Below are positions 1-50,048 of a DNA stretch of 52,946 bases, piece by piece; the stretch's first letter is position 1; the number at the start of each line of letters is the position of its first letter. Under the pieces are notes generated by a model. It did no database searches. It saw only the letters and a program-made list of their open reading frames with translations, and was not told the origin of the DNA. Origin of the DNA: a virus (Duplodnaviria > Caudoviricetes); the IMG/VR virus record IMGVR_UViG_3300020129_000041, positions 1-52,946 of that record; one strand, 5' to 3'. Position numbers and translations under genes: made by a program.

Positions 1-108
1 ACGGCGACGGCTCCGGCTACGGCTACGGCTCCGGCTACGGCTACGGCTCCGGCTCCGGCTACGGCTACGGCTCCGGCGACGGCTACGGCGACGGCTACGG
101 CTATGGCG
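1..108 (+). repeat. GGC-(TAC/GAC/TCC) hexamer tandem repeat, left end
   Basis: Directly visible 6-nt units. Confidence 0.95.
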
Positions 109-470
109 AAAAAATCGAAAAGGCGTACTGGTCGAAAGCGATCGCGTACTTTGCCGCGAAGTGGACGCCGGAGCAAAAAACCGAATTGCGAGCCGCGAAA
201 CTCGTCGGCGCGCGCATCGCATTCTGGCGTTCCGATGCGCGAGGTTTCCCCGCAAACGGCGGCAAGCAACTCATGCCAGTAGCGCCAGGAACCGTCGAGG
301 AAATAGCCGGACCGCTTAAGCTCTGTACGAGGAATGCACTGCACGCAACCGACCTGCCGCGCAAGTGGAAAGGCGAACGGCTATGGGTCGTCGCGCTTTA
401 CGGCGAAGTAGCTGATGGCGGCGACAAGATAGGCGCGCTCAAGCGCGAGATTTTGGGAGAATGCATTTGA
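1..470 (+). CDS. 3' part of a Gly-Tyr/Asp/Ser repeat protein with a globular C-terminal domain (probably continues from 52593 across the window junction)
   Basis: The frame of ORF 186..470 is open back to base 3 and encodes (G-[Y/D/S])n then EKIEKAYWSKAIAYF...ILGECI*. The same repeat fills 52626-52946. Confidence 0.75.
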   Translation, partial: GDGSGYGYGSGYGYGSGSGYGYGSGDGYGDGYGYGEKIEKAYWSKAIAYFAAKWTPEQKTELRAAKLVGARIAFWRSDARGFPANGGKQLMPVAPGTVEEIAGPLKLCTRNALHATDLPRKWKGERLWVVALYGEVADGGDKIGALKREILGECI

Positions 471-562
471 GCCAACTAGCCAAACAGTTTGGTGTTTGGC
501 CGACTCTCATCCGGCGCATCGTGTTAGGCCAAGCTTGGAAACACATCGGCGAGTGTGTATGA
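461..562 (+). pseudogene. 33-aa HTH fragment resembling the C-terminal DNA-binding tail of phage HNH endonucleases
   Basis: Hand translation MHLSQLAKQFGVWPTLIRRIVLGQAWKHIGECV*. The LA..FGV....I..I..G..WKH pattern is present and there is no nuclease domain. Confidence 0.5.
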
Positions 563-590
563 CGCCCCCTGGCGCCTTGGCCGCGAAGCC

Positions 591-851
591 ATGACCGATA
601 AGCCCGCGCAGGTGAGTATCGAGGCGCAGATAGAGGCGTGCAAGGATGCTGCGCTTGGTGAGGTAGCTGTAACCGAACGCGAGAAGGCCACTCTCCGTGC
701 CGCCGCCGCGACCCTGCGCCAAGCAAAGACGCTCGCTGAGACACAGTGCAAGTCATGCGATTATGACGAGGCCGAGGGCTATCTGTTCAACCATTGCGAT
801 ACGTGCTGCCGCGCAATCGCTACAACCCTATGGGCGCTGACTCATGACTGA
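591..851 (+). CDS. hypothetical protein with C-terminal CxxC...CxxC motifs
   Basis: ORF 555..851. ATG at 591 preferred because of ATGA coupling. Confidence 0.6.
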   Translation: MTDKPAQVSIEAQIEACKDAALGEVAVTEREKATLRAAAATLRQAKTLAETQCKSCDYDEAEGYLFNHCDTCCRAIATTLWALTHD

Positions 852-1038
852 CACCCCGCCGCCGAGCACCGCCGCTCACAATGCAGCATTGGTAGAGGCC
901 GCCGATATTGTCGCCAAGCGCGCGAAGTCCCTGCGCGACGTGACCATCTTCGACGAGGGCCGATGCGTGATTACGATTGCACAGGTCGAGAAATACATGG
1001 ATGGAGTCGTCGGCGCAATCCTTGCGAGGCGCATATGA
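844..1038 (+). CDS. hypothetical protein starting with the PSTAA scaffold motif
   Basis: Overlap-coupled to both neighbours. Confidence 0.6.
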   Translation: MTDTPPPSTAAHNAALVEAADIVAKRAKSLRDVTIFDEGRCVITIAQVEKYMDGVVGAILARRI

Positions 1039-1784
1039 CCGGCCAGCCGAGCACCGCCGCGAGCGAGTTACACGCCGGTCCGTGTGTAGTCTGCGGATTG
1101 CGCAATTACCCGCTGAGCTTCGGCGGTCCGACGATCTGCCCTGCCTGCGATTGCGGCAACAGCGGTCCGCAACTGGTGCGCTCGCAGAAGCATCGCATCG
1201 CTGAACTTGAATCTGCGCTCTCGCGCCTGTCCGCTGGCGAGGGTGGGGCGCTGGTCAAGGAGATACACGCCCTGCTCGCCGAGACTCGCAAGCAGCGCGC
1301 CTTTACCAGCGAGAGCGAGTTCCGGTGGGAGTCGATTGTCCAGCGCGCCCGCGACGAGCTGGTGCGGAGGACGGAGAAGTTCAGCGAGCACACGAAGGCG
1401 GTCGAGTCATTCCTGTCGGACCTGTATTGCACGATGGTCGACCCGTGCGCCGAGGGAAAAATGTCCGTCGCCGATATGAAGGCCGCGTTGCTGAAAGCGG
1501 CTGAACAGGTGCGCGAGGATCAGGCCAAGCTCGCCGAGGCGGAGCGGGATGCACGGATGAACGACGAAATGTTGAAAGCAGCGGTGGACAGATTTCTCTC
1601 ATGGAAGCTGCCTGCTACGTTTCATCCCGACTGCGGTATTAGCTTCGACGGTCGCGGCAAGGACGCGCGTGGATTCGACAAAGGTTGGCCGGTCGGGACA
1701 AATCTATTTACGGCGGATGAAGCGCGGGCGATGCTTGCCCACTGCCTTGAGTACCTCGCCGCCGACCCGAGCAGGGAGGGGTGA
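1035..1784 (+). CDS. mosaic accessory protein (Zn-finger N-terminus, coiled coil), scaffold copy A
   Basis: ATGA start at 1035 is in frame with ORF 963..1784. Shares five short blocks with 4441..5109. Confidence 0.75.
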   Translation: MTGQPSTAASELHAGPCVVCGLRNYPLSFGGPTICPACDCGNSGPQLVRSQKHRIAELESALSRLSAGEGGALVKEIHALLAETRKQRAFTSESEFRWESIVQRARDELVRRTEKFSEHTKAVESFLSDLYCTMVDPCAEGKMSVADMKAALLKAAEQVREDQAKLAEAERDARMNDEMLKAAVDRFLSWKLPATFHPDCGISFDGRGKDARGFDKGWPVGTNLFTADEARAMLAHCLEYLAADPSREG

Positions 1785-1786
1785 GC

Positions 1787-1999
1787 ATGGCATACCGATT
1801 CTATCCGCCAGACGAAGGGTTCAGCGCCGACGAGATTAAGCGCGGGCTGCATTGGGTATACGCCGACGTTGAGTGTCCGCACTGCGGCAAGGTGCAGCCG
1901 GTTGCAGCAACAACCTATGTCGGCGGTCCTTGCGTGCAATGCGGACTGCACACTGGCGATAACGTCAGTGCCGCCCCTCCCACGAAAGGCGAGCGATGA
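1787..1999 (+). CDS. small zinc-ribbon protein
   Basis: CPHC...CVQC motifs. GGAGG upstream. Confidence 0.65.
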   Translation: MAYRFYPPDEGFSADEIKRGLHWVYADVECPHCGKVQPVAATTYVGGPCVQCGLHTGDNVSAAPPTKGER

Positions 2000-2199
2000 T
2001 CCATTACGCCGAATGCTACAACTGTTATGCCGAGGTTAGCATCGACGGATCACGCGATCCCGATGCTCGCCGCGATGCGCTCAAACAGGCCATGAAAGCC
2101 TGCACGTTCGAGCTTAATGGTGAGACGGTCTATCACATGACCGGGCGTGAGTGCTACGACGCAATCCGCGCCCTGCTGGAGCCGAGCGATGAGCGCTGA
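1996..2199 (+). CDS. hypothetical protein, paralog of 5946..6149
   Basis: Shares RR.A.KQA.K.C and the terminal IRALLEPSDER. Confidence 0.65.
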   Translation: MIHYAECYNCYAEVSIDGSRDPDARRDALKQAMKACTFELNGETVYHMTGRECYDAIRALLEPSDER

Positions 2200-2220
2200 C
2201 ACCGAGCGCGGGTATTGGAT

Positions 2221-4431
2221 ATGAGCGGGCCATCGTATGGGCAGTTTCTGCGCTCCAAGGTTATCAGCGATCCGGCAACGGGTCTGCGCGATGTGCCGGA
2301 CCTGTCGCCGATGCTGTTTGACTTTCAGCGCGACATCGTGCGCTGGGCACTCCGCCGTGGCCGTGCTGCGATCTTCGCTGATTGCGGACTCGGTAAGACG
2401 CCAATGCAGCTTGAATGGGCGCGGCACATACCGGGCCGCGTGCTGATCTTGGCACCGCTCGCGGTATCGGCGCAGACCGTGCGCGAAGCGCAGAAGTTCG
2501 GGATTGAGGGCGTTGTCTATGCTCGCCAGCCGACACTCACGAATGAGAAGATCATCGTCACGAATTACGAGATGCTTTCGCATTTCGACCCGGCCGACTT
2601 TACCGGGATCGTGCTCGATGAATCTTCCATCCTCAAGTCCTACGATGGCGCGACTCGCAATGCGATCATTTCCGCCTTCGAGCGGACGCCATTTCGGCTC
2701 GCTTGCACTGCGACGCCAGCCCCGAACGATTACATGGAGCTCGGCAATCACGCCGAGTTTCTAGGCACGCTGACACGCACGGAAATGCTCTCAACCTACT
2801 TCGTCCATGATGGCGGAGAGACGCAGAAATGGCGCCTGAAGGGCCATGCCGAGCGCGACTTCTGGCGCTGGCTCTGTTCGTGGGCAATCACGATCCGCAA
2901 GCCATCTGACCTTGGCTACGATGACGGCGATTTCGTTCTGCCTCCGATTGAGTTCATCGAGCATACGGTCGGCGCAACCCATGCCCAAGAAGGCTATCTG
3001 TTCGCGCTGCCGGCAGCGGGCCTTCAGGAGCGCATTGCAGCGCGCCGCGATACGTTAGTCGAGCGCGTGACCGAGGCCGCAGCGATCGTGGCAGAAGATG
3101 ATGGGACTTGGGTCGTCTGGTGCAATCTCAATGCAGAATCAGAAGCGCTCGCCAGTCAGATTATCGACTCCGTAGAGGTACGCGGGTCGGATTCTGCCGA
3201 TGAGAAAGAGCAAGCGCTTGTCGACTTCTCGACCGGCAAGACGCGGATCATGGTCACGAAGCCGAGCATCGCCGGCTTCGGGTTGAACTGGCAGCACTGC
3301 GCGAATGTCGCCTTCGTTGGACTCTCGGACTCGTGGGAATCCTACTATCAGGCCGTGCGTCGTTGCTGGCGCTTCGGGCAGAAAAAACCAGTCAAGGTGC
3401 ATATCATCACGGCCGACATTGAAGGCGCCGTGCTCGCCAATATCAAGCGCAAGGAAGCCGACGCGGAGAGGATGGCAAGTGAAATGCTGGAACATATGCG
3501 GGATCTGAACGCGGAGGCCTTGCACGGCGCAACCGTGCGCCAACGCGACGATTACAAGCCAGAGGTATCGCAGGGCGAGGATTGGACGCTCTATCTCGCC
3601 GATTGCGTGGACGTGACGCGGGAACTGCCGGACAACTCGCTGCATTATTCGATCTTCTCGCCGCCGTTCTCATCGCTCTATACCTACTCGGCGAGCGAGC
3701 GCGATCTTGGCAACTGCCGCGACTTGGATACTTTTATCGCTCACTTCGGGTTTCTGGTGAAGGAACTGCATCGGGCGATGATGCCCGGTCGTCTCGTGAG
3801 CTTCCACTGCATGAATCTGCCGACGAGTAAGGTCAAGCATGGCGTCATCGGGTTGCAAGACTTCCGCGGCGATCTGATCCGACTCTTTGAGCAGCATGGT
3901 TTCATCTATCATAGCGAAGTCGTGATCTGGAAAGACCCCGTCACGGCGATGCAGCGCACCAAGGCACTCGGACTGCTGCACAAGCAGCTCAAGAAGGACT
4001 CCTGCATGAGCCGTCAGGGCGTACCGGACTATCTCGTGACCATGCGCAAGGCTGGCGACAATCCAGAGCGCGTGACGCATACCGCCGATGACTTTCCGGT
4101 TGAACTCTGGCAAAACTACGCGAGCCCGGTCTGGATGGATATCAACCCGAACGAGACGCTGCAATTCAGGAGCGCACGCGAGCACGCCGACGAGCGCCAC
4201 ATCTGCCCGCTACAACTCGAGGTGATTCGCCGCGCGCTCAAGCTTTGGACCAATCCCGGCGATCTAGTGTATAGCCCGTTCGCTGGCATCGGCTCCGAAG
4301 GCTTCTGCGCGCTCCAAGCCGGTCGGCGATTTGTCGGCGCGGAACTCAAGCGCAGCTATTGGGAGCAGGCTAGCCGCAATCTACCGAGGGCGCGCGAGGA
4401 ACAAGGGCTGCTACTGGCGGACAGCGCATGA
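2221..4431 (+). CDS. SNF2-like helicase fused to an N4-C/N6-A DNA methyltransferase
   Basis: Walker A-like DCGLGKT, DESS, TATP and QAVRRCWRFGQ motifs, then SPPF (motif IV) and PFAGIGS (SAM binding). Confidence 0.85.
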   Translation: MSGPSYGQFLRSKVISDPATGLRDVPDLSPMLFDFQRDIVRWALRRGRAAIFADCGLGKTPMQLEWARHIPGRVLILAPLAVSAQTVREAQKFGIEGVVYARQPTLTNEKIIVTNYEMLSHFDPADFTGIVLDESSILKSYDGATRNAIISAFERTPFRLACTATPAPNDYMELGNHAEFLGTLTRTEMLSTYFVHDGGETQKWRLKGHAERDFWRWLCSWAITIRKPSDLGYDDGDFVLPPIEFIEHTVGATHAQEGYLFALPAAGLQERIAARRDTLVERVTEAAAIVAEDDGTWVVWCNLNAESEALASQIIDSVEVRGSDSADEKEQALVDFSTGKTRIMVTKPSIAGFGLNWQHCANVAFVGLSDSWESYYQAVRRCWRFGQKKPVKVHIITADIEGAVLANIKRKEADAERMASEMLEHMRDLNAEALHGATVRQRDDYKPEVSQGEDWTLYLADCVDVTRELPDNSLHYSIFSPPFSSLYTYSASERDLGNCRDLDTFIAHFGFLVKELHRAMMPGRLVSFHCMNLPTSKVKHGVIGLQDFRGDLIRLFEQHGFIYHSEVVIWKDPVTAMQRTKALGLLHKQLKKDSCMSRQGVPDYLVTMRKAGDNPERVTHTADDFPVELWQNYASPVWMDINPNETLQFRSAREHADERHICPLQLEVIRRALKLWTNPGDLVYSPFAGIGSEGFCALQAGRRFVGAELKRSYWEQASRNLPRAREEQGLLLADSA

Positions 4432-4479
4432 CCGCCCGCCCCGCCGAGCACCGCCGCGAGCGAGATTAACGCCGAGCGC

Positions 4480-5109
4480 ATGGCGCGGCTATTCCACGGT
4501 CACTATGAGCGGCTTGCGCCTTCGTTCAGCTACGTGACGCGCAAGGATTCGCGTGTCTCGTTCGATGATCTACCGCCGAACAATCGCGCGCTCATGCTGG
4601 CCGTGTGCAAGGAAATCGTCGAGTGGATCGAGGATTGCGAGCGTGCTGTGCCGCTCTCGCGCCTGTCCGCCGGCGAGGGTGACGTGACGGAACTCTTGCG
4701 CGACGCGGACGAATGCCCCGAATGGTCAAGCCTCGACGCCGTCAAGAACGTGGTGCGGAAACTGGCTATTGAGTTACGGCGCGCCCGCGACGAGCTTGTG
4801 CGGCAGGCGGATCACATTGTGAGCATGACCGAGGACCGCGATGCGTTCCAGCAGATGTACATGGACACGAAGGCCAAGCTCGCCGAGGCGGAGCGGGATG
4901 CGCGGAGGATAGACTGGCTAGAGTCGCACAAGAGCGCGCACATGGGTCCGCTGAATACTCACGTTACGCGCAAAGCCGCGTCAGTTGAAATGACGTGGTT
5001 GCCGGAACACAGCGTTATCCAGCGGGTAAATGCTGAGACTGTGCGTGCGGCTATCGACGCCGCCCTCGCCGCCGACCCGAGCAGGAGCAACGATGCCGCT
5101 CGCGATTGA
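4480..5109 (+). CDS. mosaic accessory protein, scaffold copy B
   Basis: LSRLSAGEG, RARDELVR, AKLAEAERDAR and LAADPSR are shared with 1035..1784. PSTAASE lies in frame upstream at 4444. Confidence 0.7.
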   Translation: MARLFHGHYERLAPSFSYVTRKDSRVSFDDLPPNNRALMLAVCKEIVEWIEDCERAVPLSRLSAGEGDVTELLRDADECPEWSSLDAVKNVVRKLAIELRRARDELVRQADHIVSMTEDRDAFQQMYMDTKAKLAEAERDARRIDWLESHKSAHMGPLNTHVTRKAASVEMTWLPEHSVIQRVNAETVRAAIDAALAADPSRSNDAARD

Positions 5110-5917
5110 CCTGTTCTGCGGCCTTGGCGGCTGGACCGAGGGCTTGCTTGCGGAGGGCTGGGACGTGATCGGGTTCGACATTGAGCAGCACGCATACGGC
5201 GAGCATCGCTATCCAGCGCAACTCGTCCTGCAAGACGTGCTGACGCTGCACGGCTCGCAGTTCCGCTCGGCTGATCTGATCGTCGCCTCGCCGCCGTGCC
5301 AGAAGTATTCGTACATGGCGATGCCGTGGTCGAAGTCGAAAGCGCTGATCGCTTGGTATCTGGAGTCGCCCGAGCGCATCGCCGAACTGAACGCGCTGTT
5401 TGACGCTTGCTTTCGCATCCAGCGCGAGGCGTGCGAGGCCAGCGGTCGGCATATCCCGCTGGTGGTCGAGAACGTGCGCGGGGCGGTTCCGTGGGTCGGC
5501 AGGAGTCGCTGGAACTTCGGCAGCTTCCACCTATGGGGCGACGTGCCCGCGCTAATGCCGATGACGAAGCGCACGGCCATCTTGAAGCCACAGGAGTATC
5601 AGCGGCGGCATGGGACGGGTTCATGGTTCGCAATCGACATGAAGTCGGCGCGAGCAGGAATCACTGATCCGGCTGCGATCAAGCAACCCGGAACGCGCTT
5701 CGACGGCAGCGGCAAGTCGTGGCAGACCGCAGCGGTTGAGGCGACCGGCACGAAGCAGGGCGGCGATTCGTTCAACGATTCGCAGCCGTCAATCTCGCGA
5801 CTCTATGGCAGCAAGAGCAGCAAGCGCAAGGCCGCGTCGGCGCTGATCGCCAAAATACCGCTGGTGCTGGCGCGGCACATCGGCCACTACTGGCATCCCG
5901 ACAGGATCGCGTCATGA
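5093..5917 (+). CDS. DNA (cytosine-5) methyltransferase
   Basis: DLFCGLGG (motif I), SPPCQ (catalytic), ENV (motif VI). AGGAG RBS before ATG 5093. Confidence 0.85.
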   Translation: MPLAIDLFCGLGGWTEGLLAEGWDVIGFDIEQHAYGEHRYPAQLVLQDVLTLHGSQFRSADLIVASPPCQKYSYMAMPWSKSKALIAWYLESPERIAELNALFDACFRIQREACEASGRHIPLVVENVRGAVPWVGRSRWNFGSFHLWGDVPALMPMTKRTAILKPQEYQRRHGTGSWFAIDMKSARAGITDPAAIKQPGTRFDGSGKSWQTAAVEATGTKQGGDSFNDSQPSISRLYGSKSSKRKAASALIAKIPLVLARHIGHYWHPDRIAS

Positions 5918-5945
5918 GTGCCGCCACTCCCGCGAAAGGCGAGCG

Positions 5946-6149
5946 ATGAGCCATCCGATGCAGCACGTACAGAATTTATGCGACATGGCGGCTGCCGATT
6001 CTAGGCGCGTCGCGATCAAACAGGCGATCAAGTGCTGCGAGGATTACGCCGTGGCGATGCAGATCAACCAAGAATTCTTGGCGCACGGAGCGGCCCATGC
6101 GTGTGCCAAGCGCATCCGCGCCCTGCTGGAGCCGAGCGATGAGCGCTGA
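5946..6149 (+). CDS. hypothetical protein, paralog of 1996..2199
   Basis: Identical C-terminal IRALLEPSDER. Confidence 0.65.
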   Translation: MSHPMQHVQNLCDMAAADSRRVAIKQAIKCCEDYAVAMQINQEFLAHGAAHACAKRIRALLEPSDER

Positions 6150-6663
6150 CACCGAGCGCAGGTGCGCCTCCGCTGACGAGATCGCGTATGCGCTGACGCG
6201 ACCGCAGGGTCCGTTCCCCTATCGCCGGTATGTGTGCGTGCCCAACGTCAGTTGGGGCTTGGACTTAGCGGGCGAGGCCGATGTCGTCGCTCTCTCCGGC
6301 TCCGGGTATCTGACCGAGATCGAGATCAAGATCAGCGTCGCCGATTTCCGCCGCGACGCCGGCAAGCGCAAGCACAGGCTTCCGAACGGGAGCGCGCACG
6401 GACTCGTCAGCGCCTTCTACTACGCAATGCCGGATACGATCTGGCCCAAAATTGAAGCCGAGTTTCCGCCGCACGCGGGATTGATCCTTGTCGATGACGA
6501 ATATCGGGCGCGGGTCGTTATCAAAGCGCCGGCGCGAGCGTGTCGCAAGCTCAGAGACGACGAGCGCGAACAGCTCGGGCGCTTGGGGACGATGCGATAC
6601 TGGACGCGGCTCAATCACGGCCAGTGGACCGCCCGCCCCGCCGAGCAGCGCGAGAGGGAGTAA
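6139..6663 (+). CDS. MmcB-like PD-(D/E)XK nuclease
   Basis: EADVVAL...EIEIKISVADFRRD and FYYAMP motifs. Start at MSADTER. Confidence 0.7.
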   Translation: MSADTERRCASADEIAYALTRPQGPFPYRRYVCVPNVSWGLDLAGEADVVALSGSGYLTEIEIKISVADFRRDAGKRKHRLPNGSAHGLVSAFYYAMPDTIWPKIEAEFPPHAGLILVDDEYRARVVIKAPARACRKLRDDEREQLGRLGTMRYWTRLNHGQWTARPAEQRERE

Positions 6664-6685
6664 AAAACCCCGACCGGAGCCGGGG
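6662..6685 (-). terminator. intrinsic terminator ending the leftward late operon
   Basis: Minus strand CCCCG-N8-CGGGG-TTTTTT, where the two operons converge. Confidence 0.7.
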
Positions 6686-6710
6686 CCGAAGTGGAAGGAA
6701 TAACAGACGG

Positions 6711-7193
6711 CTACGGAGTGACGCCGGGCCCGGTAACCTCAATCGCTCCGGCTACTGCCAGGCCGGCGGCGACGCCGAGCGAACCTTGCAGCAGGTAGTT
6801 GCCGGGCGTCCCGAGCTTGGTCTGATCTCCGAAAGCCGCGGTAATATTGACCGCGCCTTGCTTGCCGGTCAGCGTCAGGGTCGCGCCTTGCGGGTTCGCG
6901 GGATCGGGCGCGACCAGCGTCGCAACGGTCGTGTCGTCGATCGCCCATACTGGGATATCGGCGTCCGTGGTCGTGTTGCCCTTGTCATCGACGAACTTGT
7001 CAACGGCCAGTTGGAACGGGCCGCCGTCTACGGTTGTATTGCTCATGAAATCTCCTTCGAATGTAATCGAGAACCCCGGGTATTTCAGGGTAACGACGGG
7101 CCGTGCCGGCTCCGGTTTGCAGCGGCAGAATACCCAACAAAAGAGCCGCCGGAAGGCTTCCGCCGCAGGGCCGTCGTGTTCGTGGTGGCTCAT
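6711..7193 (-). CDS. Ig-like beta-sandwich protein, with an in-frame internal start at 7046
   Basis: W..DD..VATLV...GAVNITA pattern. GAAGGAG RBS before ATG 7046. Confidence 0.55.
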   Translation of the reverse strand: MSHHEHDGPAAEAFRRLFCWVFCRCKPEPARPVVTLKYPGFSITFEGDFMSNTTVDGGPFQLAVDKFVDDKGNTTTDADIPVWAIDDTTVATLVAPDPANPQGATLTLTGKQGAVNITAAFGDQTKLGTPGNYLLQGSLGVAAGLAVAGAIEVTGPGVTP

Positions 7194-7234
7194 GCCTGTA
7201 GTATACGCGCGGCGGTTTACGGTGGCGTTACCCG

Positions 7235-7624
7235 CTAGCCGAAATAGGCTGCGTTGAATGCCTTGGCGTCGGTCGCCGGGTCGCCGGTGAGCTGGAGCGT
7301 GAGCGGGCCCGGCGTCCCGTTCTTGCCGGGCGCTGGCGCTGGAGTGGCAGGCTCGGCTGCGGCCGGCCCCGCCGCGGTCACCGCCATGTGCGCCTCGACC
7401 GCCCCGCGCAATTTGGAAAGCTCCGTCGCGATATCGCTTCCTACGGCCTTCAGATCGGCCCCGGCGGTCGCGGTCAAGGCTGCAGCGCCGGTCGGGTTCT
7501 TCTTGTGATACCAGACGAAGGCGACGACGGCGAGGACGACGACCAGGATCGCGCCGAACATCCACGGGTCGAAGGTTGAGCTGGCAGCCGCCACGGGGGC
7601 GAGGGTTTGGGCGTAAGCGTTCAT
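7235..7624 (-). CDS. single-pass membrane protein in the lysis region
   Basis: Hydrophobic WMFGAILVVVLAVVAFVWY followed by a Pro/Ala-rich tail. ATGA-coupled. Confidence 0.7.
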   Translation of the reverse strand: MNAYAQTLAPVAAASSTFDPWMFGAILVVVLAVVAFVWYHKKNPTGAAALTATAGADLKAVGSDIATELSKLRGAVEAHMAVTAAGPAAAEPATPAPAPGKNGTPGPLTLQLTGDPATDAKAFNAAYFG

Positions 7625-8013
7625 TTGGGGGCGACTCCTTTGGTGGTCTGACATTGGACAAACAGGGCTTCGAGCTGGCGCATGTAGAGCTCGTCGGCGG
7701 CGTTATCGGCCGCGATCGCATCCGCCATCTGGTCGGTCGTGGCGTGGTCGATATCGATCGGCGTCGGGACCGGCGCGACGGGGCGATCGGCCTCGCTGAA
7801 GCAGGGCACCGGGACCGGAACCTTGACCTCGACGGTCGTGGTCCGCGTTTCCGGCGGCAACGTCGGATCGGATGCGCAGCCGACAAGCGCCACCGCTATA
7901 ATTGCGATTGTGAGCCGACCATATCGCGGACGTCGATAGCGGCGCGGTGGCAACACGGAACAGGAGTTGGCGGGTCGACCCGCGACATCCCCGTACGATG
8001 CTGGCCGGCTCAT
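7621..8013 (-). CDS. o-spanin (Rz1-like lipoprotein)
   Basis: Lipobox LVGC, Pro-rich VEVKVPVPVPC, follows the i-spanin. Confidence 0.75.
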   Translation of the reverse strand: MSRPASYGDVAGRPANSCSVLPPRRYRRPRYGRLTIAIIAVALVGCASDPTLPPETRTTTVEVKVPVPVPCFSEADRPVAPVPTPIDIDHATTDQMADAIAADNAADELYMRQLEALFVQCQTTKGVAPK

Positions 8014-8456
8014 TTCGCCACCCCGCGCCGATCGCGCAGCGCCTGCCGCAGCGTGTCCTTTGCTTTGGCGAGTTCGTCCGCGCAGGCCATCAGTTTCGGC
8101 TTGGCGGCGGCGTCGGCCTGAAGTTGGGCGATCCGCGGGGCCGCTGCGGTTGCATCCTTCGCCTGCTGTACCCGCAGCGCCTTTGCCGCGTCAGAGTTCG
8201 CCTGCGCGCGGTTGTGCCAGAGGTCGACCAGATCGGATTGCGTCTTGGCGTTGGCGACGCAGGCCGCGGTATCGGCCTGGGCGTTCTCGATGCGCGTGTT
8301 CAATTGTGCGACCACCTTCTGGTCAGCCGCTAACTGTCGCGCCGCCCCTTCCTGCCGCGCCGGCTCGACGTAGTATTTCTGTTCGAATTCGTGGAAGGCG
8401 AAGGCCGCTCCGGCGGCGAGCGCGGCATAGATCGCGAGCTCGATGAGTATGCTCAC
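8010..8456 (-). CDS. i-spanin (Rz-like)
   Basis: N-terminal TM followed by an Ala/Gln-rich coiled coil with Cys. Confidence 0.7.
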   Translation of the reverse strand: MSILIELAIYAALAAGAAFAFHEFEQKYYVEPARQEGAARQLAADQKVVAQLNTRIENAQADTAACVANAKTQSDLVDLWHNRAQANSDAAKALRVQQAKDATAAAPRIAQLQADAAAKPKLMACADELAKAKDTLRQALRDRRGVAK

Positions 8457-8752
8457 GGCGCCGGCCCGATGTAGGTCTGCACGACGGGGTCTTCGAGCTC
8501 GGCGATTGCCGCGCGCGCCCGCTTGATGTCATTGTCGATCGCGCTCGCGCAGTGCGAGCGGCCCGTAACTGGGTCTTTGCGAAACGGCCAGCAACGATCA
8601 AGCAAATACCAGCCGACGAGGCCCCAGCGATGGCCATGAGCCGCCGCCGTGCCGCAACGCGAGGATATCGTTACGCCCAGCGTACCGTAATGGAAGAACG
8701 CCTGCACGAAGGCGTCGAAGCCGATCGCGAGACGTAGGAGATATGCTGTCAT
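8453..8752 (-). CDS. hypothetical lysis-region protein
   Basis: TISSRCG...HC motif. Coupled ORF. Confidence 0.6.
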   Translation of the reverse strand: MTAYLLRLAIGFDAFVQAFFHYGTLGVTISSRCGTAAAHGHRWGLVGWYLLDRCWPFRKDPVTGRSHCASAIDNDIKRARAAIAELEDPVVQTYIGPAP

Positions 8753-9126
8753 CTCGATGCTGCCTTGGCCGCATCCCTGGCCTTAGCAAGCTCTGCGGCG
8801 GCTACGTCGAGCTTCTTCTGCCACAGCGCGCGCTCACCCACCTCGGCTTTGCTCAAGTTCTGATATCGCGCCTTGGTGTCGAGTCGGTCTACTTCGTCGC
8901 CAAGGCGCTCGGCCCGTAAGTTAATGTGGGCGACATCATGCCAGCCCTCGTCCCGGCGATAGTCACTCTTGAAAACGAACGTACCGACGACCCACCCGCC
9001 GAACCCACCGAGTAACGCTACGATGGTTAGGAGCGAGGCAATCGCCGCCAATGGGTGCTCGGCGAACGACAGGAAGCCGCGGCTCAGGTTCTCTTTGCGG
9101 GTTGCCGGCTTGCGAGGTTTGGTCAT
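8749..9126 (-). CDS. membrane protein with coiled coil (holin/antiholin candidate)
   Basis: One TM segment. Coupled ORF. Confidence 0.55.
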   Translation of the reverse strand: MTKPRKPATRKENLSRGFLSFAEHPLAAIASLLTIVALLGGFGGWVVGTFVFKSDYRRDEGWHDVAHINLRAERLGDEVDRLDTKARYQNLSKAEVGERALWQKKLDVAAAELAKARDAAKAASR

Positions 9127-9506
9127 TTGGTTAGTGTAGTCTTTTGCGGAACGTCCGGAGGCGCGGTCGGCAGCACGCCAGCGGGCGCCGTGCCCCCGGC
9201 CGGAACGGTCGCGGTATGACTGTCGCTCCAGATGAAGGCAGCGATTCCCGGCAGCACGGTTACGAAGATTGCGGCCGAGATCGCGGCTACGGCGGTACTA
9301 TACGCTGAGAGAATCTTGGTGAGCTCCTCCGAGCTTGGCCATGCCGTCCAGTACGCGCCGCCGGCGGCAGCGGTAACAATCGCAAGCAAGCCCCCATAGA
9401 TACGCATGGTGCGGAACAGGAAGACGTACCCCGCATTGACGGTCCCATCGGCATTCATAATCGCCGAGTGGTACAGCGCAACCGGATCGAAGCGCGGAGC
9501 GCTCAT
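9123..9506 (-). CDS. two-TM membrane protein (holin candidate)
   Basis: Start MSAPRFDP overlaps the endolysin stop. Two hydrophobic segments. Confidence 0.6.
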   Translation of the reverse strand: MSAPRFDPVALYHSAIMNADGTVNAGYVFLFRTMRIYGGLLAIVTAAAGGAYWTAWPSSEELTKILSAYSTAVAAISAAIFVTVLPGIAAFIWSDSHTATVPAGGTAPAGVLPTAPPDVPQKTTLTK

Positions 9507-10045
9507 GCGAGCGCCTGGTTGGCGAGCTTGAGGTACGCTACTCGCCGATCGAAGTGCGTCGCTGGAGCTGTCACCGACCCGTTTATCTTGAGCGTGATTC
9601 GCTCGAAGTTTCCGGCGTCGGCGAGGTTGTTTAGGTCGTTTGTTTGCCAGAACCATGCGCCTCCCTGGGCAGCGCCCCACGGTTGCTCGAGCAGTTCGGG
9701 CGTATCGAGCAATCGCAGATCGCCATAGACGGCGAGTGAACAAGCCTGATAGTTGGCGCGGCCCGTGACTTCGAGCAAGCCGCGGCCCGGGAACTTGATG
9801 CCATCGCCGGGTTGCGTGTTGCCGAGGTCTGCGCGGCCCTCGTACGCCGCTCCGCTCGCGATCTCCCGCACATACCTGAGCTCGCCGGATTCCTCCGCCA
9901 CTTGGGCGAGGAATGCGGCCTGCCGCGCTTTCGTCTGGTCGATACCGAAGGCGACTTGCGCGTCGTTGATCGGCGAGATCCACGTCGCGGCGCGGTCCTC
10001 GGTCAACGTCCGCATGATCGTGCGAAGCTGCGTCGTTGAGATCAT
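9503..10045 (-). CDS. endolysin, glycoside hydrolase family 19
   Basis: AAFLAQ..EES, YEGR.DLGN...GDG..F.GRG....TGR.NY, ING motifs. Confidence 0.9.
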   Translation of the reverse strand: MISTTQLRTIMRTLTEDRAATWISPINDAQVAFGIDQTKARQAAFLAQVAEESGELRYVREIASGAAYEGRADLGNTQPGDGIKFPGRGLLEVTGRANYQACSLAVYGDLRLLDTPELLEQPWGAAQGGAWFWQTNDLNNLADAGNFERITLKINGSVTAPATHFDRRVAYLKLANQALA

Positions 10046-27947: not shown

Positions 27948-28726
27948 GCCGCCTCCATGAGTTTCCGGTCAAGCAGATGCGCTATCGCTTCGCCGCTGGC
28001 GATCTCGCCGATTCGCCACTGCGCCCAGATCAGGCGCCGGAACATCGCAAGCCGCGCGGCTTGGTCAGTGTTCGGCTCAACGGTCCCGAACTGCTCGAGC
28101 GGTCGGCCAGCGCCGGCCCCGATCCAGTGCTGGAACCCGTACCAGACCGGAACGCCGAGCATGAGCGCGCCTAACGCGGCCGCGCTATTCCAGGTTGCGA
28201 CCGCCGAAATATCGGCCAGATCACGCGCCAGCGCGACCTTTGGCGGATTCGTGCCCGGGTGCGGCCTGATGCGTCCGCCGTACTTGGCGCGCGTCCTTTC
28301 CGCCCATTGCGGCGGGGAGGCAATGCCAGGTTCTCCAATCCCGCGCTGCGCGAGCACCAGCAAGCAGCCAGAACGCTCGCGGAAAGGCGCTAGATCGATG
28401 CCTAATGCATCCCAGCGCTCGGGGTCGCCCTCAGACCAAGTCCCCGCGCCCGCATGGTGTCCTAGGGCCATTGCGAGCCAGGTATCGCCACGCCAGGACT
28501 TGCCTAGATAGCCGTTTTCGACCACGAGCACGGCCGCGCCAGCGCGCTCGTACTGCTTAGCAGCCTCTGCGCTCGCTCCGTAACGGTTCCAGATCACCAA
28601 GGCGTCGCCTGGTGCCGGGTCCGGAATCGACGGCCTGACCGAGAAGCCGGCGGCCGACAGACCCTTCAGGAACGCTGCCCGCCGGTCCTTAAGAGAATCC
28701 CGGATCATGCAGCAGGCGCGGTTCAT
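27944..28726 (-). CDS. KpsS/KpsC-like capsule-polysaccharide glycosyltransferase
   Basis: ENGY, R.HP, TWNS.AA..A...GVP, L..AQW...EI..G motifs. Confidence 0.7.
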   Translation of the reverse strand: MNRACCMIRDSLKDRRAAFLKGLSAAGFSVRPSIPDPAPGDALVIWNRYGASAEAAKQYERAGAAVLVVENGYLGKSWRGDTWLAMALGHHAGAGTWSEGDPERWDALGIDLAPFRERSGCLLVLAQRGIGEPGIASPPQWAERTRAKYGGRIRPHPGTNPPKVALARDLADISAVATWNSAAALGALMLGVPVWYGFQHWIGAGAGRPLEQFGTVEPNTDQAARLAMFRRLIWAQWRIGEIASGEAIAHLLDRKLMEAA

Positions 28727-29484
28727 GCCAGCGCCTCGTCCAGTTTCACGCGCGGGAAGCAGGTCAGGCGCGTGCGCCGGCTGGCATTCCTAACAACGAC
28801 GCCCATTTCTGCCAAGCCCCACGCCAATCGGACGAAATTAGCCGCCCAGATCTCGTATTGCGGAACGCTATGCATGGGCCGCGGGTGATCGCCATGCCAG
28901 TGCGAGCGCCCAACAGCGTCTGCTCCGACGTCGAAGCCGAGCAGAACGATCCGCGCCGCTCCGACTTGATATGCCAGGCCAACCGCCTGATAGCCTCCGT
29001 TCGCACCCTGGTTGATGACTCCGATGCGCTTGCCGAGTCCCGGCTTGGTCTCGCTTCGCACCAAGTGTAGCCGCGTCCATTTCTTCGCGGCGACCTCGTC
29101 CTGGGTCCAAAGCTGGCCGGCGAATGAGTCGAGTTTCTGGTAAAAGGCGTTCCACCAGCGACCGTCGCAGGCGTAGAGGACATCGGCCCAGGGCGCGCGC
29201 TGGTAACTGTTATTGACCACAATCACCCGGCGATCCCTGCCATTGCGCCACGCGCCGACAGCCTCGCAATCCTCAACCGTCAGGCTCGGGCCGCTCGCGA
29301 TCACGACCACGGAAGCGCCGCGCCACGGCAGCGCATCCCAATATAGCCGCTGGCCGACCGGCGCGGCCGCGCCTTCGCTGACCAGTTGCAGAGCGGTCCG
29401 CTCACAGTCGGCAACGAATTCCTGCCCGTCGGCGATCGTTCCGACGCCGATATCCAAGTTTCGGAGGGCGACTAGGCGGGTCAA
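28723..29484 (-). CDS. Maf/MptE-like (DUF115-type) transferase with an N-terminal capsid-accessory-like domain
   Basis: IASGPSL, VVN, D..YA.D..WW, G.QAV.LA...GA..I.LLGFD motifs. Confidence 0.7.
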   Translation of the reverse strand: MTRLVALRNLDIGVGTIADGQEFVADCERTALQLVSEGAAAPVGQRLYWDALPWRGASVVVIASGPSLTVEDCEAVGAWRNGRDRRVIVVNNSYQRAPWADVLYACDGRWWNAFYQKLDSFAGQLWTQDEVAAKKWTRLHLVRSETKPGLGKRIGVINQGANGGYQAVGLAYQVGAARIVLLGFDVGADAVGRSHWHGDHPRPMHSVPQYEIWAANFVRLAWGLAEMGVVVRNASRRTRLTCFPRVKLDEALA

Positions 29485-36834: not shown

Positions 36835-37824
36835 TTATCTCAGTCTCACTACTGGCTGAGGAGCCGGCGCGCTGCGCGCAACGGCGTCTCCATCCCGTCC
36901 GTCGGTTCCCTTCTTCACGCACAGAATCCAATCATCGCTCTGCCCTGGGCATTCGATTGTTTTCTCGGCGCGGCAATACCATTGCGATCCGCTCCGCGTA
37001 ACCGTATCTCCGAGCTCGTATTGGTCTTGCTTCCACACGCCACGGTTGAGCTGCGTCGGCGTAAAGAATGGCGCCTCGAGCACAGTCCCATTGAGCAGCG
37101 TGAGCAGCATCATGAAATGCCGATGATCTCCCGAGTCCTTGACCTCGAACTTGATACCAGCGAGCAACTTGGGGAGCACGGCATCGGCGACCGTCGCGAT
37201 CACCGAAGGATCATCCGCGCTCTTCCCATCGCGACCCGGCCTTCCGTCGCGCCCTAATTCGCCTTGCTTGCCGCGTAGCCCAGGCTCGCCCTGAACGCCG
37301 AAGCCGTCTTTGCCCTTCAGCGATACCAGCCATTGCTGAACCGTCCCCGCGAAACCTTCCTTGACAGCGAGATCGAACGCGCTTGCTCCAGGCGGCCCCA
37401 TCTCTCCGCGATCACCTTTTATCGACTCGCCTTTTTCGCCGCGCTCTCCGGGTTGCCCATCCTTCGGCTTCGGGACTCGCTCGAGTACGGCAGTTACGAT
37501 GGCATCAACGTCCGGCGCTGGCGCATCCTTTCCAGGCTCCCCATCTTTAGCAGGCGGAAGCGCCTTGAACGCTTGGTCGACCCGCACCAGAACGTCATGC
37601 GTGACCGTCTCAGAGACTTCAGCGGCCAACGCCTTCACGTCCACCGCCGGAGCGTCCTTACCCGGCTGCCCAGGAGCGCCGTCTTTAGGCACAGGAAGCG
37701 CCCTTAGCTTCGCCTCCAATTCATCCACGCGATCCATCAAAGGCGCATAGCGCTTGGCGACATAGCCCTCGATCGCTTGGAACAGTTCCTCCTCGAATTC
37801 CAGCGTCAGGCCGTCATCGCTCAT
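36835..37824 (-). CDS. collagen-like protein downstream of the portal
   Basis: G-X-Y repeats, duplicated KDG.PGKDAP, C-terminal Y..GD.V...GS.W motif. Confidence 0.8.
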   Translation of the reverse strand: MSDDGLTLEFEEELFQAIEGYVAKRYAPLMDRVDELEAKLRALPVPKDGAPGQPGKDAPAVDVKALAAEVSETVTHDVLVRVDQAFKALPPAKDGEPGKDAPAPDVDAIVTAVLERVPKPKDGQPGERGEKGESIKGDRGEMGPPGASAFDLAVKEGFAGTVQQWLVSLKGKDGFGVQGEPGLRGKQGELGRDGRPGRDGKSADDPSVIATVADAVLPKLLAGIKFEVKDSGDHRHFMMLLTLLNGTVLEAPFFTPTQLNRGVWKQDQYELGDTVTRSGSQWYCRAEKTIECPGQSDDWILCVKKGTDGRDGDAVARSAPAPQPVVRLR

Positions 37825-39194
37825 GCGGCGTTCCTTAGTCTGCGCGCGACGCGGGCGAAAGACAGCACCTTGGTCGGCACCTTCGGTTCATTCGGCGTCG
37901 GCAATGCGGGCGGACTCGGATCGGACGCGGCAGGCGTAGCACTCGGAGGCCCGCGCTCGGCGAGCTGGTTGAGCGGGTAATTCTGTTGCTGCAAGTAAGG
38001 CGTCTCGCCACCCTTGACTGGCGGCAGGTCTTCCTTCGCCCGCGCTTCGTTCGGCGAGAACACCGCGCTCTGGATCAGTTTCGAGTAGGTCTCGGCGCGG
38101 GCCTGCGGGTCCATCCTGAGCAAGCCCTCTAGATCGAACTCGACATATTGGCCCGCGGCAAGTCCGAGTCCTTCGCCAAGCAGCGCTTCGATGCCCTCGA
38201 TGTGTTCCTGTAACGCCTGCGAATAGTATTCCTGATTCAACGTCGCCAATCCCGATGCCGGCAACGTCGAGCCGCCAAGTTTGTAAAGCGGAATACCGAA
38301 CGGCCGTACCACGTCCTCGACGGTCCACTTCAGCTGCTCGATCAACTGTGCCTGGTCCGCCGGCATCGTCATGGTCTCGAACTTCATGCCGCCCGTCGTC
38401 ACGAGAATGCGGCCGACGTTGGCGCCGGTAAAGCCTTCGGTAAGTTCCTTTTTCAATTCCGCGAGCCGAGGGTCGGAGATCGTTCCCGGCGCATCCAGAT
38501 GCCCGCTCGGGCGCGACATGTTCTCGAAGAATCGCGCGCTGTTCGCCTGGATCCTTATGCCCTGCGTTGCGCTCGCAGCGCAAGCATAGATGGGCGAGAC
38601 TCCGACCAGCGGATGCCAGAGCGCAGGGCAACGGTCGTGGATGATCTCGCGCGCGGCTACCGTCGGGCTGTCTGTCACACCAGCTAACTGATCCGGAGAA
38701 GCGATCTGATACCAAACGCTTCCGTCACCGCCAACCAACGGCTTGACGTGGAAAGGATTCAGTGGATACAGCGCGATCACAACTCCGCTTCCGTCGCGCT
38801 CCTTTAGGATGTACGAATTGCCATGCATCAGTTTCGACACCATCCACTGCGAGAAGAACTGGATGCGCGTCTGATAACGATTGGGCTTGCGCAGTACCGC
38901 TAGCGCTGCATCGCCTTGCATAACCTCCTGTCCGATGTCGCCAACCTGCCGCATCAGTTTCGGGCGGATCTTGGAAATGTCGCCAGCGATCAAGCGGACG
39001 CAGGCGTAAACCGTGGAGAATGCGAAAATATTGGCGTTGCCGAGCGGTTCTATGTTCCGCTGCCACGCACCGGGGAACATCTCGCGCACGATCCCCCAGA
39101 GCGGCGCAAAGCCTCCTGGCGGAAGCTGCGTGACCATCTCCATGCCTTTTTCAAGGCCGTCATAGTCGCGCTGTGGCTGGGCGAAGAGTCTCAT
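37821..39194 (-). CDS. HK97-family portal protein
   Basis: VYACV..IA, PN..QT, GNSY, G.SP, FF.N...P.G, NEAR motifs. Confidence 0.92.
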   Translation of the reverse strand: MRLFAQPQRDYDGLEKGMEMVTQLPPGGFAPLWGIVREMFPGAWQRNIEPLGNANIFAFSTVYACVRLIAGDISKIRPKLMRQVGDIGQEVMQGDAALAVLRKPNRYQTRIQFFSQWMVSKLMHGNSYILKERDGSGVVIALYPLNPFHVKPLVGGDGSVWYQIASPDQLAGVTDSPTVAAREIIHDRCPALWHPLVGVSPIYACAASATQGIRIQANSARFFENMSRPSGHLDAPGTISDPRLAELKKELTEGFTGANVGRILVTTGGMKFETMTMPADQAQLIEQLKWTVEDVVRPFGIPLYKLGGSTLPASGLATLNQEYYSQALQEHIEGIEALLGEGLGLAAGQYVEFDLEGLLRMDPQARAETYSKLIQSAVFSPNEARAKEDLPPVKGGETPYLQQQNYPLNQLAERGPPSATPAASDPSPPALPTPNEPKVPTKVLSFARVARRLRNAA

Positions 39195-44161: not shown

Positions 44162-44510
44162 CAGGCTTCGGAGGAGCGAAAACCCGCGATCGGTCGGACG
44201 GCGTCATGCCACAGCGCGCGAGCAGGTTAATCAGAAGCGCCGTCTGCCGTATCCCGAAATGGTACGGGTCGCGCCGAGAGGCAGCGATGAGCCGCGCCAT
44301 GTGCTCGAGCAGTTTCCGGTCGCTCGACTGGAATACCCCAGGCGCGCACTCAGCGACGATTTCGTCCCAAATGGCCCGCTCGTCCTCTGGCATGGACTCC
44401 GGTGCCGGACCGACCCCGCCTGCCTTCGGTTCCGAACGCCGCCTGGACGGATTGTGCTGCCACGAACCCGAGGCCTCCTGGACAGCCGCTGGCTTCCTAA
44501 CGGCCGACAC
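44115..44510 (-). CDS. terS: terminase small subunit (P27-like)
   Basis: RKP N-terminus and GMTPSDRSR motif. Confidence 0.8.
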   Translation of the reverse strand: MSAVRKPAAVQEASGSWQHNPSRRRSEPKAGGVGPAPESMPEDERAIWDEIVAECAPGVFQSSDRKLLEHMARLIAASRRDPYHFGIRQTALLINLLARCGMTPSDRSRVFAPPKPDAAQKPKTGLASFRS

Positions 44511-44931
44511 TTATCCCCCGCGTTGCTATTTGGGGCGATTCTTTTCGTGCCCGCGCGCGGTTTCCAAAGATGTATTCGTGATTTTTTTCCACTCCCCCCC
44601 CGGTCTTAGCCGATGATCCCGCCGGCTGATTCCAGTGATGCGCAGGCTCGATCGGGACACCTGATGCGTTGACGTCGGTCTTGAGTGCTCGCTTGCCGGC
44701 CTCGGCGATGGACTTGGCCTTGTGGCATGGGCGGCACAGGGACTGCCGGTTGCTTGCCTCGTCCAGGCCGCCTTGGTCGAGCGGCTTGACGTGGTCGACC
44801 TGGGTTGCCGCGGCGCAACGCCCCATGAGCAGGCAGTAGGCGCAGAGGGGAAACTCGGCGAGGTGGCCGCGGCGTATGGCTTGCAGTTGCCTGCCGCGGA
44901 TGCGTTTGACGAATGGCCTATGCTCGGTCAT
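44497..44931 (-). CDS. HNH endonuclease (packaging-associated, HK97 gp74-like)
   Basis: PLC..C, VDH..P, N.QSLC..CH..K motifs, upstream of terS. Confidence 0.9.
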   Translation of the reverse strand: MTEHRPFVKRIRGRQLQAIRRGHLAEFPLCAYCLLMGRCAAATQVDHVKPLDQGGLDEASNRQSLCRPCHKAKSIAEAGKRALKTDVNASGVPIEPAHHWNQPAGSSAKTGGGVEKNHEYIFGNRARARKESPQIATRGISVGR

Positions 44932-49762: not shown

Positions 49763-50048
49763 GTATTAACAGCGAGAGCGTTACCAAACTGTGCGACGCG
49801 CTAATCGACAACGGTCATCCGACGCCTGACGAGATTCGCCGCGCGATGGCAATCGCCTACGAGGCCGGGAAGATCGACGGCTCGCTGGAGCAATTGAATA
49901 AATGGCTATCGGTCGCGGAGGTCAAAGCATGAGGCGTTTGCGGCGCTGGTTCCGTCTGGCATTCGCGTGGTCCAAGGCGAGCCGGACGCGCGTCAAGCGC
50001 AGCGAGGCGCAGCGCGGACGCAAGCGCACGCCGAAGGTTGCGGCATGA
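49759..50048 (+). other. two short coupled ORFs (49759..49932 and Arg-rich 49929..50048)
   Basis: Hand-translated ATGA chain leading into the YqaJ gene. Confidence 0.5.

Follow-up and report, generated by a model that had tools for sequence, protein, structure and literature searches.

Two apparently tandem, differently filled copies of a mosaic scaffold with short coding repeats in a predicted tailed phage

It has long been established that phages become mosaic by exchanging DNA at short conserved sequences. In the extracts of the literature used here, the idea is summarised in PMC3029335 and experiments are described in PMC3945230. The viral contig IMGVR_UViG_3300020129_000041 (Duplodnaviria; Caudoviricetes) carries a locus that is a well-resolved instance of this principle and introduces no new mechanism. 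The whole contig, positions 1-52,946, was analysed and is called the window below. In its first 7 kb the window appears to hold one mosaic scaffold twice in tandem, each time with different contents. Short identical repeats mark what has remained fixed in this scaffold, and between them domains and whole accessory genes have been exchanged for unrelated ones.

Several other described systems resemble this arrangement in part. In laboratory recombineering, homology arms of 35-50 nucleotides (nt) are used with Red or RecET. Integron cassettes and the mini-cassette conversion of pilE/pilS have ordered slots, with exchangeable content between conserved sequences. The PeSL cassettes of T4-type phages were reportedly treated by Comeau et al. 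in 2014. In the part of Arbiol et al. 2010 (PMC2839356) used here, PeSL are repeated promoter-terminator cassettes of T4-type phages that mediate modular shuffling. The gp38 adhesins of T-even phages are presented, in the extract from Trojet et al. 2011 (PMC3157838), as carrying conserved glycine-rich motifs between hypervariable segments.

In the window, nine colinear exact matches of 17-46 bp connect unit A (1035-4431) with unit B (4428-6663). The scaffold has the order a0 leader, multi-domain gene 1, slot 2, gene 3, slot 4, and a0-type tail. The cassettes flanked by the repeats, which are referred to as anchors or islands, measure 67-2,220 nt. The genes of the two units are given below, with protein lengths in amino acids (aa).

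A1, gene 1 of unit A: 1035-1784, plus strand, 249 aa
B1, gene 1 of unit B: 4480-5109, plus strand, 209 aa
A2, slot 2 of unit A: 1787-1999, plus strand, 70-aa zinc-ribbon protein with an in-frame fusion to the scaffold tail SAAPPTKGER
B2, slot 2 of unit B: 5093-5917, plus strand, C5 cytosine DNA methyltransferase
A3, gene 3 of unit A: 1996-2199, plus strand, 67 aa
B3, gene 3 of unit B: 5946-6149, plus strand, 67 aa
A4, slot 4 of unit A: 2221-4431, plus strand, SNF2 helicase and N6/N4 methylase (SNF2/Helicase_C and N6_N4_Mtase domains)
B4, slot 4 of unit B: 6139-6663, plus strand, MmcB-like protein (PD-(D/E)XK-type) with the a6 head and an a0-type tail at 6627-6651

Slots 2 and 4 are occupied by different Pfam families in unit A and unit B. 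A preliminary description of this DNA had named the zinc-ribbon, C5 methylase, helicase-methylase, and MmcB-like genes, and domain searches upheld these calls. With the gene of a third allele (L004, described below) included, the exchanged accessory genes are predicted to be three DNA methyltransferases, a nuclease, and small zinc proteins. The anchors that separate these contents are listed next, with the exact matches that define them.

a0, copy 1: 854-875, plus strand, leader of the open reading frame (ORF) 844-1038 (MTDTPPPSTAAH...); exact match 859-875 = 4441-4457, 17 nt
a0, copy 2: 1039-1067, plus strand, peptide PSTAASE; exact match 1046-1067 = 4443-4464, 22 nt
a1: 1216-1245, plus strand, peptide LSRLSAGEG; partner 4652-4681, 30 nt with 1 mismatch; exact match 1216-1234 = 4652-4670, 19 nt
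a2: 1343-1367, plus strand, peptide RARDELVR; partner 4779-4803, 25 nt with 1 mismatch; exact match 1343-1360 = 4779-4796, 18 nt
a3: 1522-1552, plus strand, peptide AKLAEAERDA(R); partner 4871-4901, exact, 31/31 nt
a4: 1754-1775, plus strand, peptide LAADPSR, the last bases being the Shine-Dalgarno (SD) sequence for slot 2; partner 5064-5085, exact, 22 nt
a5: 1967-1999, plus strand, tail SAAPPxKGER with stop, SD sequence, and ATGA start of gene 3; partner 5917-5949, 33 nt with 2 mismatches; exact match 1983-1999 = 5933-5949, 17 nt
a6: 2164-2209, plus strand, gene-3 end IRALLEPSDER with stop, and slot-4 start and head MSADTER; partner 6114-6159, exact, 46/46 nt
Ninth match, at the end of unit B: 4430-4450 = 6627-6647, 21 nt

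Eight of these matches came from an exact-match comparison of 840-4431 with 4428-6700, and the ninth from a direct-repeat search of the whole window. The eight repeat pairs of the preliminary description are all present and colinear. The longest match is 46 nt in the real sequence; when unit B was triplet-shuffled 100 times, it averaged 12.0 nt and was at most 16 nt. Matches of at least 14 nt number 8 in the real sequence and occurred 0.09 times per shuffle. When exact direct repeats of at least 16 nt with copies more than 60 nt apart were searched over all 52,946 bp, these nine and a terminal repeat coding for Gly-Tyr-Gly (GYG) were the only ones found. Each anchor is a different sequence present in two copies; a0 alone has four, placed at every unit boundary (854, 1039, 4430, and 6627).

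The seven coding islands include 61 codons for the same residue in both copies, and 58 of them are identical codons (P ~1e-24 under the phage's own codon usage). This exceeds what conservation of the peptides alone would give, and the islands are therefore recently shared DNA rather than mere conserved peptides. Their edges are sharp: at 2210 the identity in 15-nt windows drops from 1.0 to 0.13. The a0 copy of unit B has retained 22/22 nt, and no in-frame start exists there to read it in the gene-1 frame. Near-identical variants of both gene-1 proteins occur on other contigs, P0218 with one aa difference from A1 and P0075 with three from B1. The variant residues are A1 105 and B1 64, 91, and 106 (~1347-1349, 4669-4671, 4750-4752, and 4795-4797), and three of the four changes fall within islands a1 and a2. 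Two hit the exact codons of a synonymous A1/B1 difference. The island changes could be a recombination-associated polymorphism or a C>A-type sequencing error.

Gene 1 consists of small domains joined by the islands. In A1, the parts follow one another as the a0 leader, a zinc ribbon, a1, a2, the 'HTKAV..FLSDLYCTMVDP' mini-domain, a3, the 'RFLSWKLP..PDCGISFDGR..WPVGTNLFTADEA' mini-domain, and the a4 tail. B1 starts with a 'FHxxYERLAPxFxYxTR' mini-domain, followed by a1, a2, a3, the 'RIDWLES...AIDAA' mini-domain, and a4. Its frame is open from 4432, and the a0 part lacks an in-frame start. The four A1/B1 segments between islands gave z-scores of -0.4, 0.0, -1.6, and 2.5 in protein alignments (500 shuffles each), and A1 and B1 thus appear to lack detectable similarity outside the islands. 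The five repeats that code for PSTAASE, LSRLSAGEG, RARDELVR, AKLAEAERDAR, and LAADPSR (a0-a4) sit in helical connectors between these independently distributed domains. AlphaFold (AF2) models, with a mean predicted local distance difference test score (pLDDT) of 73.7 for A1 and 73.8 for B1, place a1 at a helix end or in a flexible linker (pLDDT <50 in the B1 linker), a2 and a3 within long helices (helix 83-169 in B1), and a4 within the last helices.

The mini-domains are found elsewhere in other company. The C-terminal domain of A1 accounts for most of the 1,296 proteins retrieved at E<=0.001 in a representative search, where it takes varied positions in proteins of 80-816 aa. The middle domain of A1, 'HTKAV..FLSDLYCTMVDP..ALLKAA', is also present in P0153, P0159, P0160, P0169, P0172, P0181, P0209, and P0216. 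The N-terminal 'FHxxYERLAPxFGYxTR..NRxLM' and C-terminal 'RLDWLE...AIDAA' domains of B1 occur in other combinations. BLAST coverage of A1 and B1 by mini-domain homologues starts and stops at the islands. The fillers of gene 1 are independent mini-domains, and the gene is built of interchangeable beads on conserved helical connectors. The very widespread A1 C-terminal domain, about 60 aa long (~1570-1750; 'RFLxWxLPxxFxPDCGISFDGR...WPxGTNLFTAxxA'), had no Pfam or PHROG match in the scans.

Gene 3 differs from the other fillers. A3 and B3 are of equal length and share 48% aa identity over 50 residues. Their similarity without the shared C-terminus has a z-score of 8.8 and was reached in 0/500 shuffles. 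Three gene-3 pairs compared in this way, with the shared end removed, gave z-scores of 6.9-8.8, and 0/500 shuffles reached the score in each. A fourth gene-3 protein, P0074 (61 aa), likewise ends in RTRALLEPSDER, and its contig has no match to the nucleotide pattern. Among the fillers, gene 3 is the only true diverged homologue. The earlier claim that the DNA between the repeats is unrelated stands for the segments of gene 1 and for slots 2 and 4, and has to be given up for the filler from 1999/5949 to 2164/6114, which is gene 3. Remote homology of the fillers, which had been named as an observation that would speak against module exchange, is confined to this gene.

In slot 2, two close relatives of A2 on other contigs, P0220 (61 aa) and P0221 (73 aa), lack SAAPPTKGER and differ from A2 where the tail starts. 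This anchor therefore belongs to the scaffold and not to the zinc-ribbon filler. In public phage records, A4 alone has distant DNA matches, e.g., to Synechococcus phage S-CBS3 (69%). Seven positions within 3957-3988 differ between the window and one X10 contig. Six of them are spaced by 3 nt (3957-3975), a pattern suggestive of a related strain with variation at third codon positions of A4.

A third allele was obtained by searching with a degenerate a6 pattern in the JGI metagenomes. The contig L004 (1,242 bp) is independent and comes from another sample. Its anchors have 94-100% nucleotide identity overall, with 24/24 nt identical to unit B at a4, 33/35 nt at a5, and 51/51 nt to B and 46/46 to A at a6, and every filler differs. 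The C-terminal segment of its gene 1 resembles neither A1 nor B1. Slot 2 is empty, so that gene 1 reads LAADPS-SAAPPAKGER and a stop straight to the ATGA start of gene 3, which is a third variant of 76 aa. After a6 comes a mini-ORF (MSADTERRL) with its stop overlapping the start codon of a 71-aa gene, and a phrog_757 DNA methyltransferase follows. The preliminary description had proposed searching viral metagenomes for the repeats and listing what lies between them. This approach yielded the anchors again, now around a third set of contents, and the alternative that relatives always carry the same fillers fails for the gene-1 domains, slot 2, and slot 4.

Other searches for relatives gave the following results. 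In IMG/VR, the degenerate a6 pattern and the patterns for a5 and a1 had 0 hits each, and scanning with protein alignments of gene 3 and of gene 1 left no confirmed locus; a gene-3 alignment scan of GTDB genomes also confirmed none. The five anchor-based scans of IMG/VR thus provided 0 relatives, and the JGI metagenomes 1. L005 and L006, found in IMG/VR by an exact a4 20-mer, and L007, found there by an a3 29-mer, were rejected as chance or compositional matches, with 0 tblastx high-scoring pairs (for L007, 0 elsewhere in the contig). The 29-nt exact a3 copy of L007 (4491-4519) lies in a 416-aa zinc-ribbon/coiled-coil protein of an otherwise unrelated phage contig. It may have arisen by chance through a shared peptide and codon bias, or may be a trace of wider exchange. 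Two IMG/VR contigs from a RecT scan, L008 (52% identity, with YqaJ-RecT in synteny) and L009, have no scaffold downstream. The exact proteins of the window occur on one to five JGI contigs each, and for six of these nine proteins at least two such contigs exist.

The anchors outside gene 1 appear to be translationally coupled junctions, each running from a gene tail through a ribosome-binding site (SD) and start codon into the head of the following gene. The ORF chain on the plus strand from 555 to 6663, with three mini-ORFs counted, has no gap longer than 10 nt, and ATGA overlaps occur at 7 of its 12 junctions. The small frames of this chain are the following.

ORF with a0-type leader: 844-1038, plus strand, 64 aa; its stop overlaps the A1 start (ATGA)
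Mini-ORF MSADTERGYWI with stop: 2189-2224, plus strand, remnant head of a replaced slot-4 gene; its stop overlaps the A4 start (ATGA)
Mini-ORF MTARPAEHRRERD with stop: 4428-4469, plus strand, begins on the A4 stop and holds a0 copy 3 (4430-4464)
Mini-ORF MSAATPAKGER with stop: 5914-5949, plus strand, remnant scaffold tail (a5), with ATGA overlaps to B2 upstream and B3 downstream

The a6 anchor contributes the first seven codons of slot 4 (MSADTER), a head that also opens B4 and a 9-codon mini-ORF in L004. The mini-ORF at 4428-4469 resembles the B4 tail, TARPAEQRERE with stop. These mini-ORFs of 9-13 codons look like leftovers of replaced genes that keep the chain of overlapping frames whole. 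The ORF 844-1038 has no Pfam or PHROG match and may represent a 'unit 0' in minimal form. The open frame into B1 (4432-5109) is in the reading frame of A4, with the A4 TGA stop (4429-4431) as the sole separator, and read-through of this stop would fuse the helicase-methylase to B1.

The comparison with the systems mentioned at the outset can now be made. In the extracts of PMC3029335 and PMC3945230, as in the window, sharp transitions between near-identical and unrelated sequence lie at gene boundaries. The extract of PMC3945230 also shares with it a phage-encoded exonuclease and annealase, and accessory early genes that vary. Sharp island edges, identity beyond selection on protein, and islands with other content in an independent contig (L004 only) were all found here. 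Unlike in those descriptions, two module alleles stand in tandem within one genome, and anchors are also intragenic, at domain boundaries. With 17-51 nt, the anchors are shorter than the substrates tested in the part of PMC3945230 used. PeSL, in the extract of PMC2839356, also involve short repeats that flank non-essential ORFs in a plastic region, where recombination inserts, deletes, and replaces genes. They consist there of one repeated motif with an early promoter and a terminator stem-loop, whereas the anchors of the window are all different, coding, and devoid of promoter, terminator, and hairpin. A PeSL array was rejected after promoter, stem-loop, and single repeated motif had each been looked for at the anchors and not found. 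Gene 1 resembles gp38, as given in the extract of PMC3157838, in that short conserved motifs bound easily interchanged variable segments within one gene. However, gp38 is a virion adhesin under host-range selection and gene 1 an early protein; here whole unrelated mini-domains are swapped instead of loops, and the scaffold spans three further genes.

Recombineering likewise places two short arms around an unrelated cassette and uses an exonuclease/annealase pair, which is present in this genome. Unlike in the laboratory, the arrangement is natural, and most arms are shorter than 30 nt. An integron-like array was rejected, with 0 matches to PF00589 and no attC-type palindromes at the anchors. 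Unlike an integron, the record has neither an integrase nor another site-specific recombinase, and it has no attC-like hairpins: in 800-6700 a single weak inverted repeat was found, away from the anchors. In contrast to pilE/pilS, the scaffold is known here without an arrangement of silent copy and expression locus. The features that distinguish the locus are coding anchors, slots at the level of both domains and genes in one scaffold, adaptor mini-ORFs, and tandem alleles.

The reading favoured here, and considered probable, is ordinary phage mosaicism through recombination at short conserved sequences, with two alleles caught in tandem. Homologous recombination would proceed by cross-overs within the islands, either among related phages or from one copy to the other. 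The first entry of each foreign filler would be an illegitimate join, and selection would have kept those joins that preserve the overlapping chain of reading frames, which would account for the remnant mini-ORFs. The tandem state could have come from out-of-register (unequal) crossing-over at a0. The phage's own recombination proteins, already suggested in the preliminary description and found in the same genome as the scaffold, are a plausible catalyst.

YqaJ-type exonuclease: 49967-50965, plus strand, 79.5 bits, above the family cut-off
RecT annealase: 50946-51890, plus strand, 101.9 bits, above the family cut-off

No tyrosine or serine recombinase was found in the record, which may be incomplete (PF00589, 0 matches). 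No sigma-70-like promoter lies in the anchors; positions 1-9000 contain two promoter-like sites, both on the minus strand, with a shuffle mean of 2.3. No hairpin, inverted repeat, or terminator was found in any anchor. With no site-specific recombinase and with anchors of this kind, it is therefore economical to assume general homologous recombination.

Several observations weigh against this reading. The four versions of gene 3 known so far are all diverged homologues, and this slot therefore shows no cassette exchange. L004 is the sole relative with DNA that carries several anchors, so that the population picture comprises three alleles, and insertion into an L004-like ancestor and a deletion that yielded L004 are indistinguishable. 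The distant relatives P0091 and P0010 retain recognisable, diverged island peptides; conservation is therefore partly selection on the protein. Seven of the nine exact matches measure 17-22 nt, below the ~30 bp quoted as the Red-beta minimum in the part of De Paepe et al. (PMC3945230) used here. Two exact matches reach at least 30 nt (31 and 46), and four do so when 1-2 mismatches are allowed. The completeness of the record is estimated by CheckV at 68%. Deletion junctions between the copies, which the preliminary description had proposed to look for, did not appear: the contigs of 4 runs, which drop rare variants, show no in-register joint of anchor-to-anchor deletion or exchange.

The tandem itself might be an artefact, if the assembly had joined two strain variants of a single-copy locus through a short k-mer common to both. 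In keeping with a chimera, the record was assembled from a metagenome, the join coincides exactly with a repeat of 21-25 nt, and both contig ends fall in a repeat. However, an independent Logan k=31 contig of run X2 covers the A/B join (4357-4572) with 0 differences, and the join repeat of 21-25 nt is too short to fuse a k=31 graph; a chimera is therefore hardly credible. The Logan contigs of run X1 cover 400-1551, 1523-2029, and 4872-7400 at similar depths across both units (12.3, 8.3, and 10.4). They break only at the 31-bp repeat, since a k=31 assembly must break at a true 31-nt repeat, and for the same cause those of X2 stop at 1551 and 4900 and begin at 6130. Some odd joints with short sides or low depth were seen (X4, 1239 to 5055; X10, 4431 through 39 nt to 5054; X2, 6781 to 5061), and those of X10 and X4, which lead from the A4 stop and from anchor a1, respectively, to a point shortly before a4, may represent further alleles that miss most of B1. 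Given a true tandem, an old duplication with plain divergence, in which purifying selection on peptides or ribosome-binding sites kept the islands, would suit the colinear order, the homology of gene 3, and the SD-like sequences and start codons in the junction anchors. It is judged refuted, and keeps next to no probability, because of the identical codons, the different families and domains of the fillers, and the homologue coverage that ends at the islands; the conservation of a0 in unit B outside the gene-1 frame also speaks against it. A simple duplication had already been called inadequate, and the codon identity and the different filler families bear this out. Concerted evolution, by which short-patch gene conversion would act on still-similar motifs of anciently diverged paralogous units without exchange with other phages, fits the sharp island boundaries, the match of the islands to motifs kept in diverged form in P0091 and P0010, and the position of three of the four variant residues of A1 and B1 within a1 and a2. 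Against it, conversion cannot create the non-homologous genes of slots 2 and 4. The identity between L004 and unit B (51 nt at a6 and 24 nt at a4) is longer than that between A and B and requires exchange or common descent beyond the two copies. This explanation is considered quite improbable.

A dedicated, selected shuffling system is regarded as unlikely. Under this explanation the anchors would be kept as built-in homology arms for YqaJ/RecT swaps, and the second unit would serve as a reservoir of parts. It is in line with heterologous cassettes that are flanked as by recombineering arms, with YqaJ and RecT in the same record, with an a0 in unit B kept at 22/22 nt though untranslated in the gene-1 frame, with other fillers between the L004 anchors, and with three variable genes for DNA methyltransferases, a class under diversifying pressure. 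However, the contigs hold no in-register joints, which leaves ongoing exchange unsupported. Most anchors are shorter than 30 nt and can be explained as protein connectors and translation-initiation regions. The scaffold is rare in IMG/VR and the JGI metagenomes, and the pattern is explicable without selection for evolvability. The earlier view of the repeats as fixed anchors for the swapping of modules is thus borne out by L004, the A2 relatives, and the codon identity, and nothing shows the dedicated shuffling cassette that went with it. A broader form of the idea can be put forward tentatively, as doubtful: a natural recombineering platform, on which YqaJ/RecT would repeatedly swap mini-domains and anti-restriction genes, namely methyltransferases and a nuclease, through nucleotide-identical connectors and junctions of 20-50 nt, with co-infecting relatives and the tandem reservoir as partners and the mini-ORFs as coupling adaptors. 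If this were true, the anchors could serve as bait for new counter-defence genes in metagenomes and would be ready-made insertion sites for phage engineering.

The locus offers a base-pair view of how a phage operon accepts foreign genes and domains while its expression stays intact. Conservation is seen in the connectors and in the junctions where stop and start overlap, and tiny leftover frames keep the translational relay going. Two adjacent alleles, with a third elsewhere, are a natural substrate for measuring RecT-type recombination at homologies of 20-50 nt. Because genes for DNA modification occupy the variable slots, searches of soil metagenomes guided by the anchors could reveal more accessory, probably counter-defence, genes.

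The record is a linear-class IMG/VR contig with a G+C content of 61%, and terminase, portal, head/protease, and related matches point to a tailed phage. Its further features are these.

GYG[S/D] tandem repeat, coding: 1-110 and 52620-52946, plus strand, one gene from ~52533 to the end and then to 3-470
GC-rich hairpin: 6666-6692, no strand assigned, between convergent operons, the sole strong hairpin and located after unit B
Endolysin: 9503-10045
Portal: 37821-39194
Major head/protease fusion: 39455-41884
Terminase large subunit (TerL): 42446-44161
HNH endonuclease: 44497-44931

The assembly probably broke inside the terminal Gly-Tyr-Gly repeat, so that a circular or permuted genome is possible, as is a completeness above the CheckV estimate. 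The plus-strand genes of 49.9-52.9 kb, which include YqaJ, RecT, and a DUF6948 protein, probably run on into 1-6663 as a single early operon, because both contig ends meet within one repeat gene. Provided that the ends join, YqaJ/RecT lie ~2 kb upstream of the scaffold. The scaffold region is the distal end of this rightward early operon, and the hairpin is likely its end.

The listing of runs with near-identical sequence comprises 24 from soil or rhizosphere, and 11 of these contain half or more of the sampled words. A TerL scan of GTDB genomes gave 30 loci with 33-66% identity, mostly from Burkholderiales and other Pseudomonadota. Relatives with 53-58% identity are prophage genes of Massilia, Polaromonas, Noviherbaspirillum, and Nitrosomonas, and the best match (66%) comes from a metagenome-assembled genome labelled Planctomycetales, where its contig measures 2.5 kb. 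The host is probably a soil proteobacterium, as judged from these matches. The Rfam search gave 0 matches and the tRNA search 0 genes. A 253-aa protein on the minus strand (28723-29484) matches phrog_4603, 'alpha-2,3-sialyltransferase' (E 4e-45), an unusual annotation in a soil phage.

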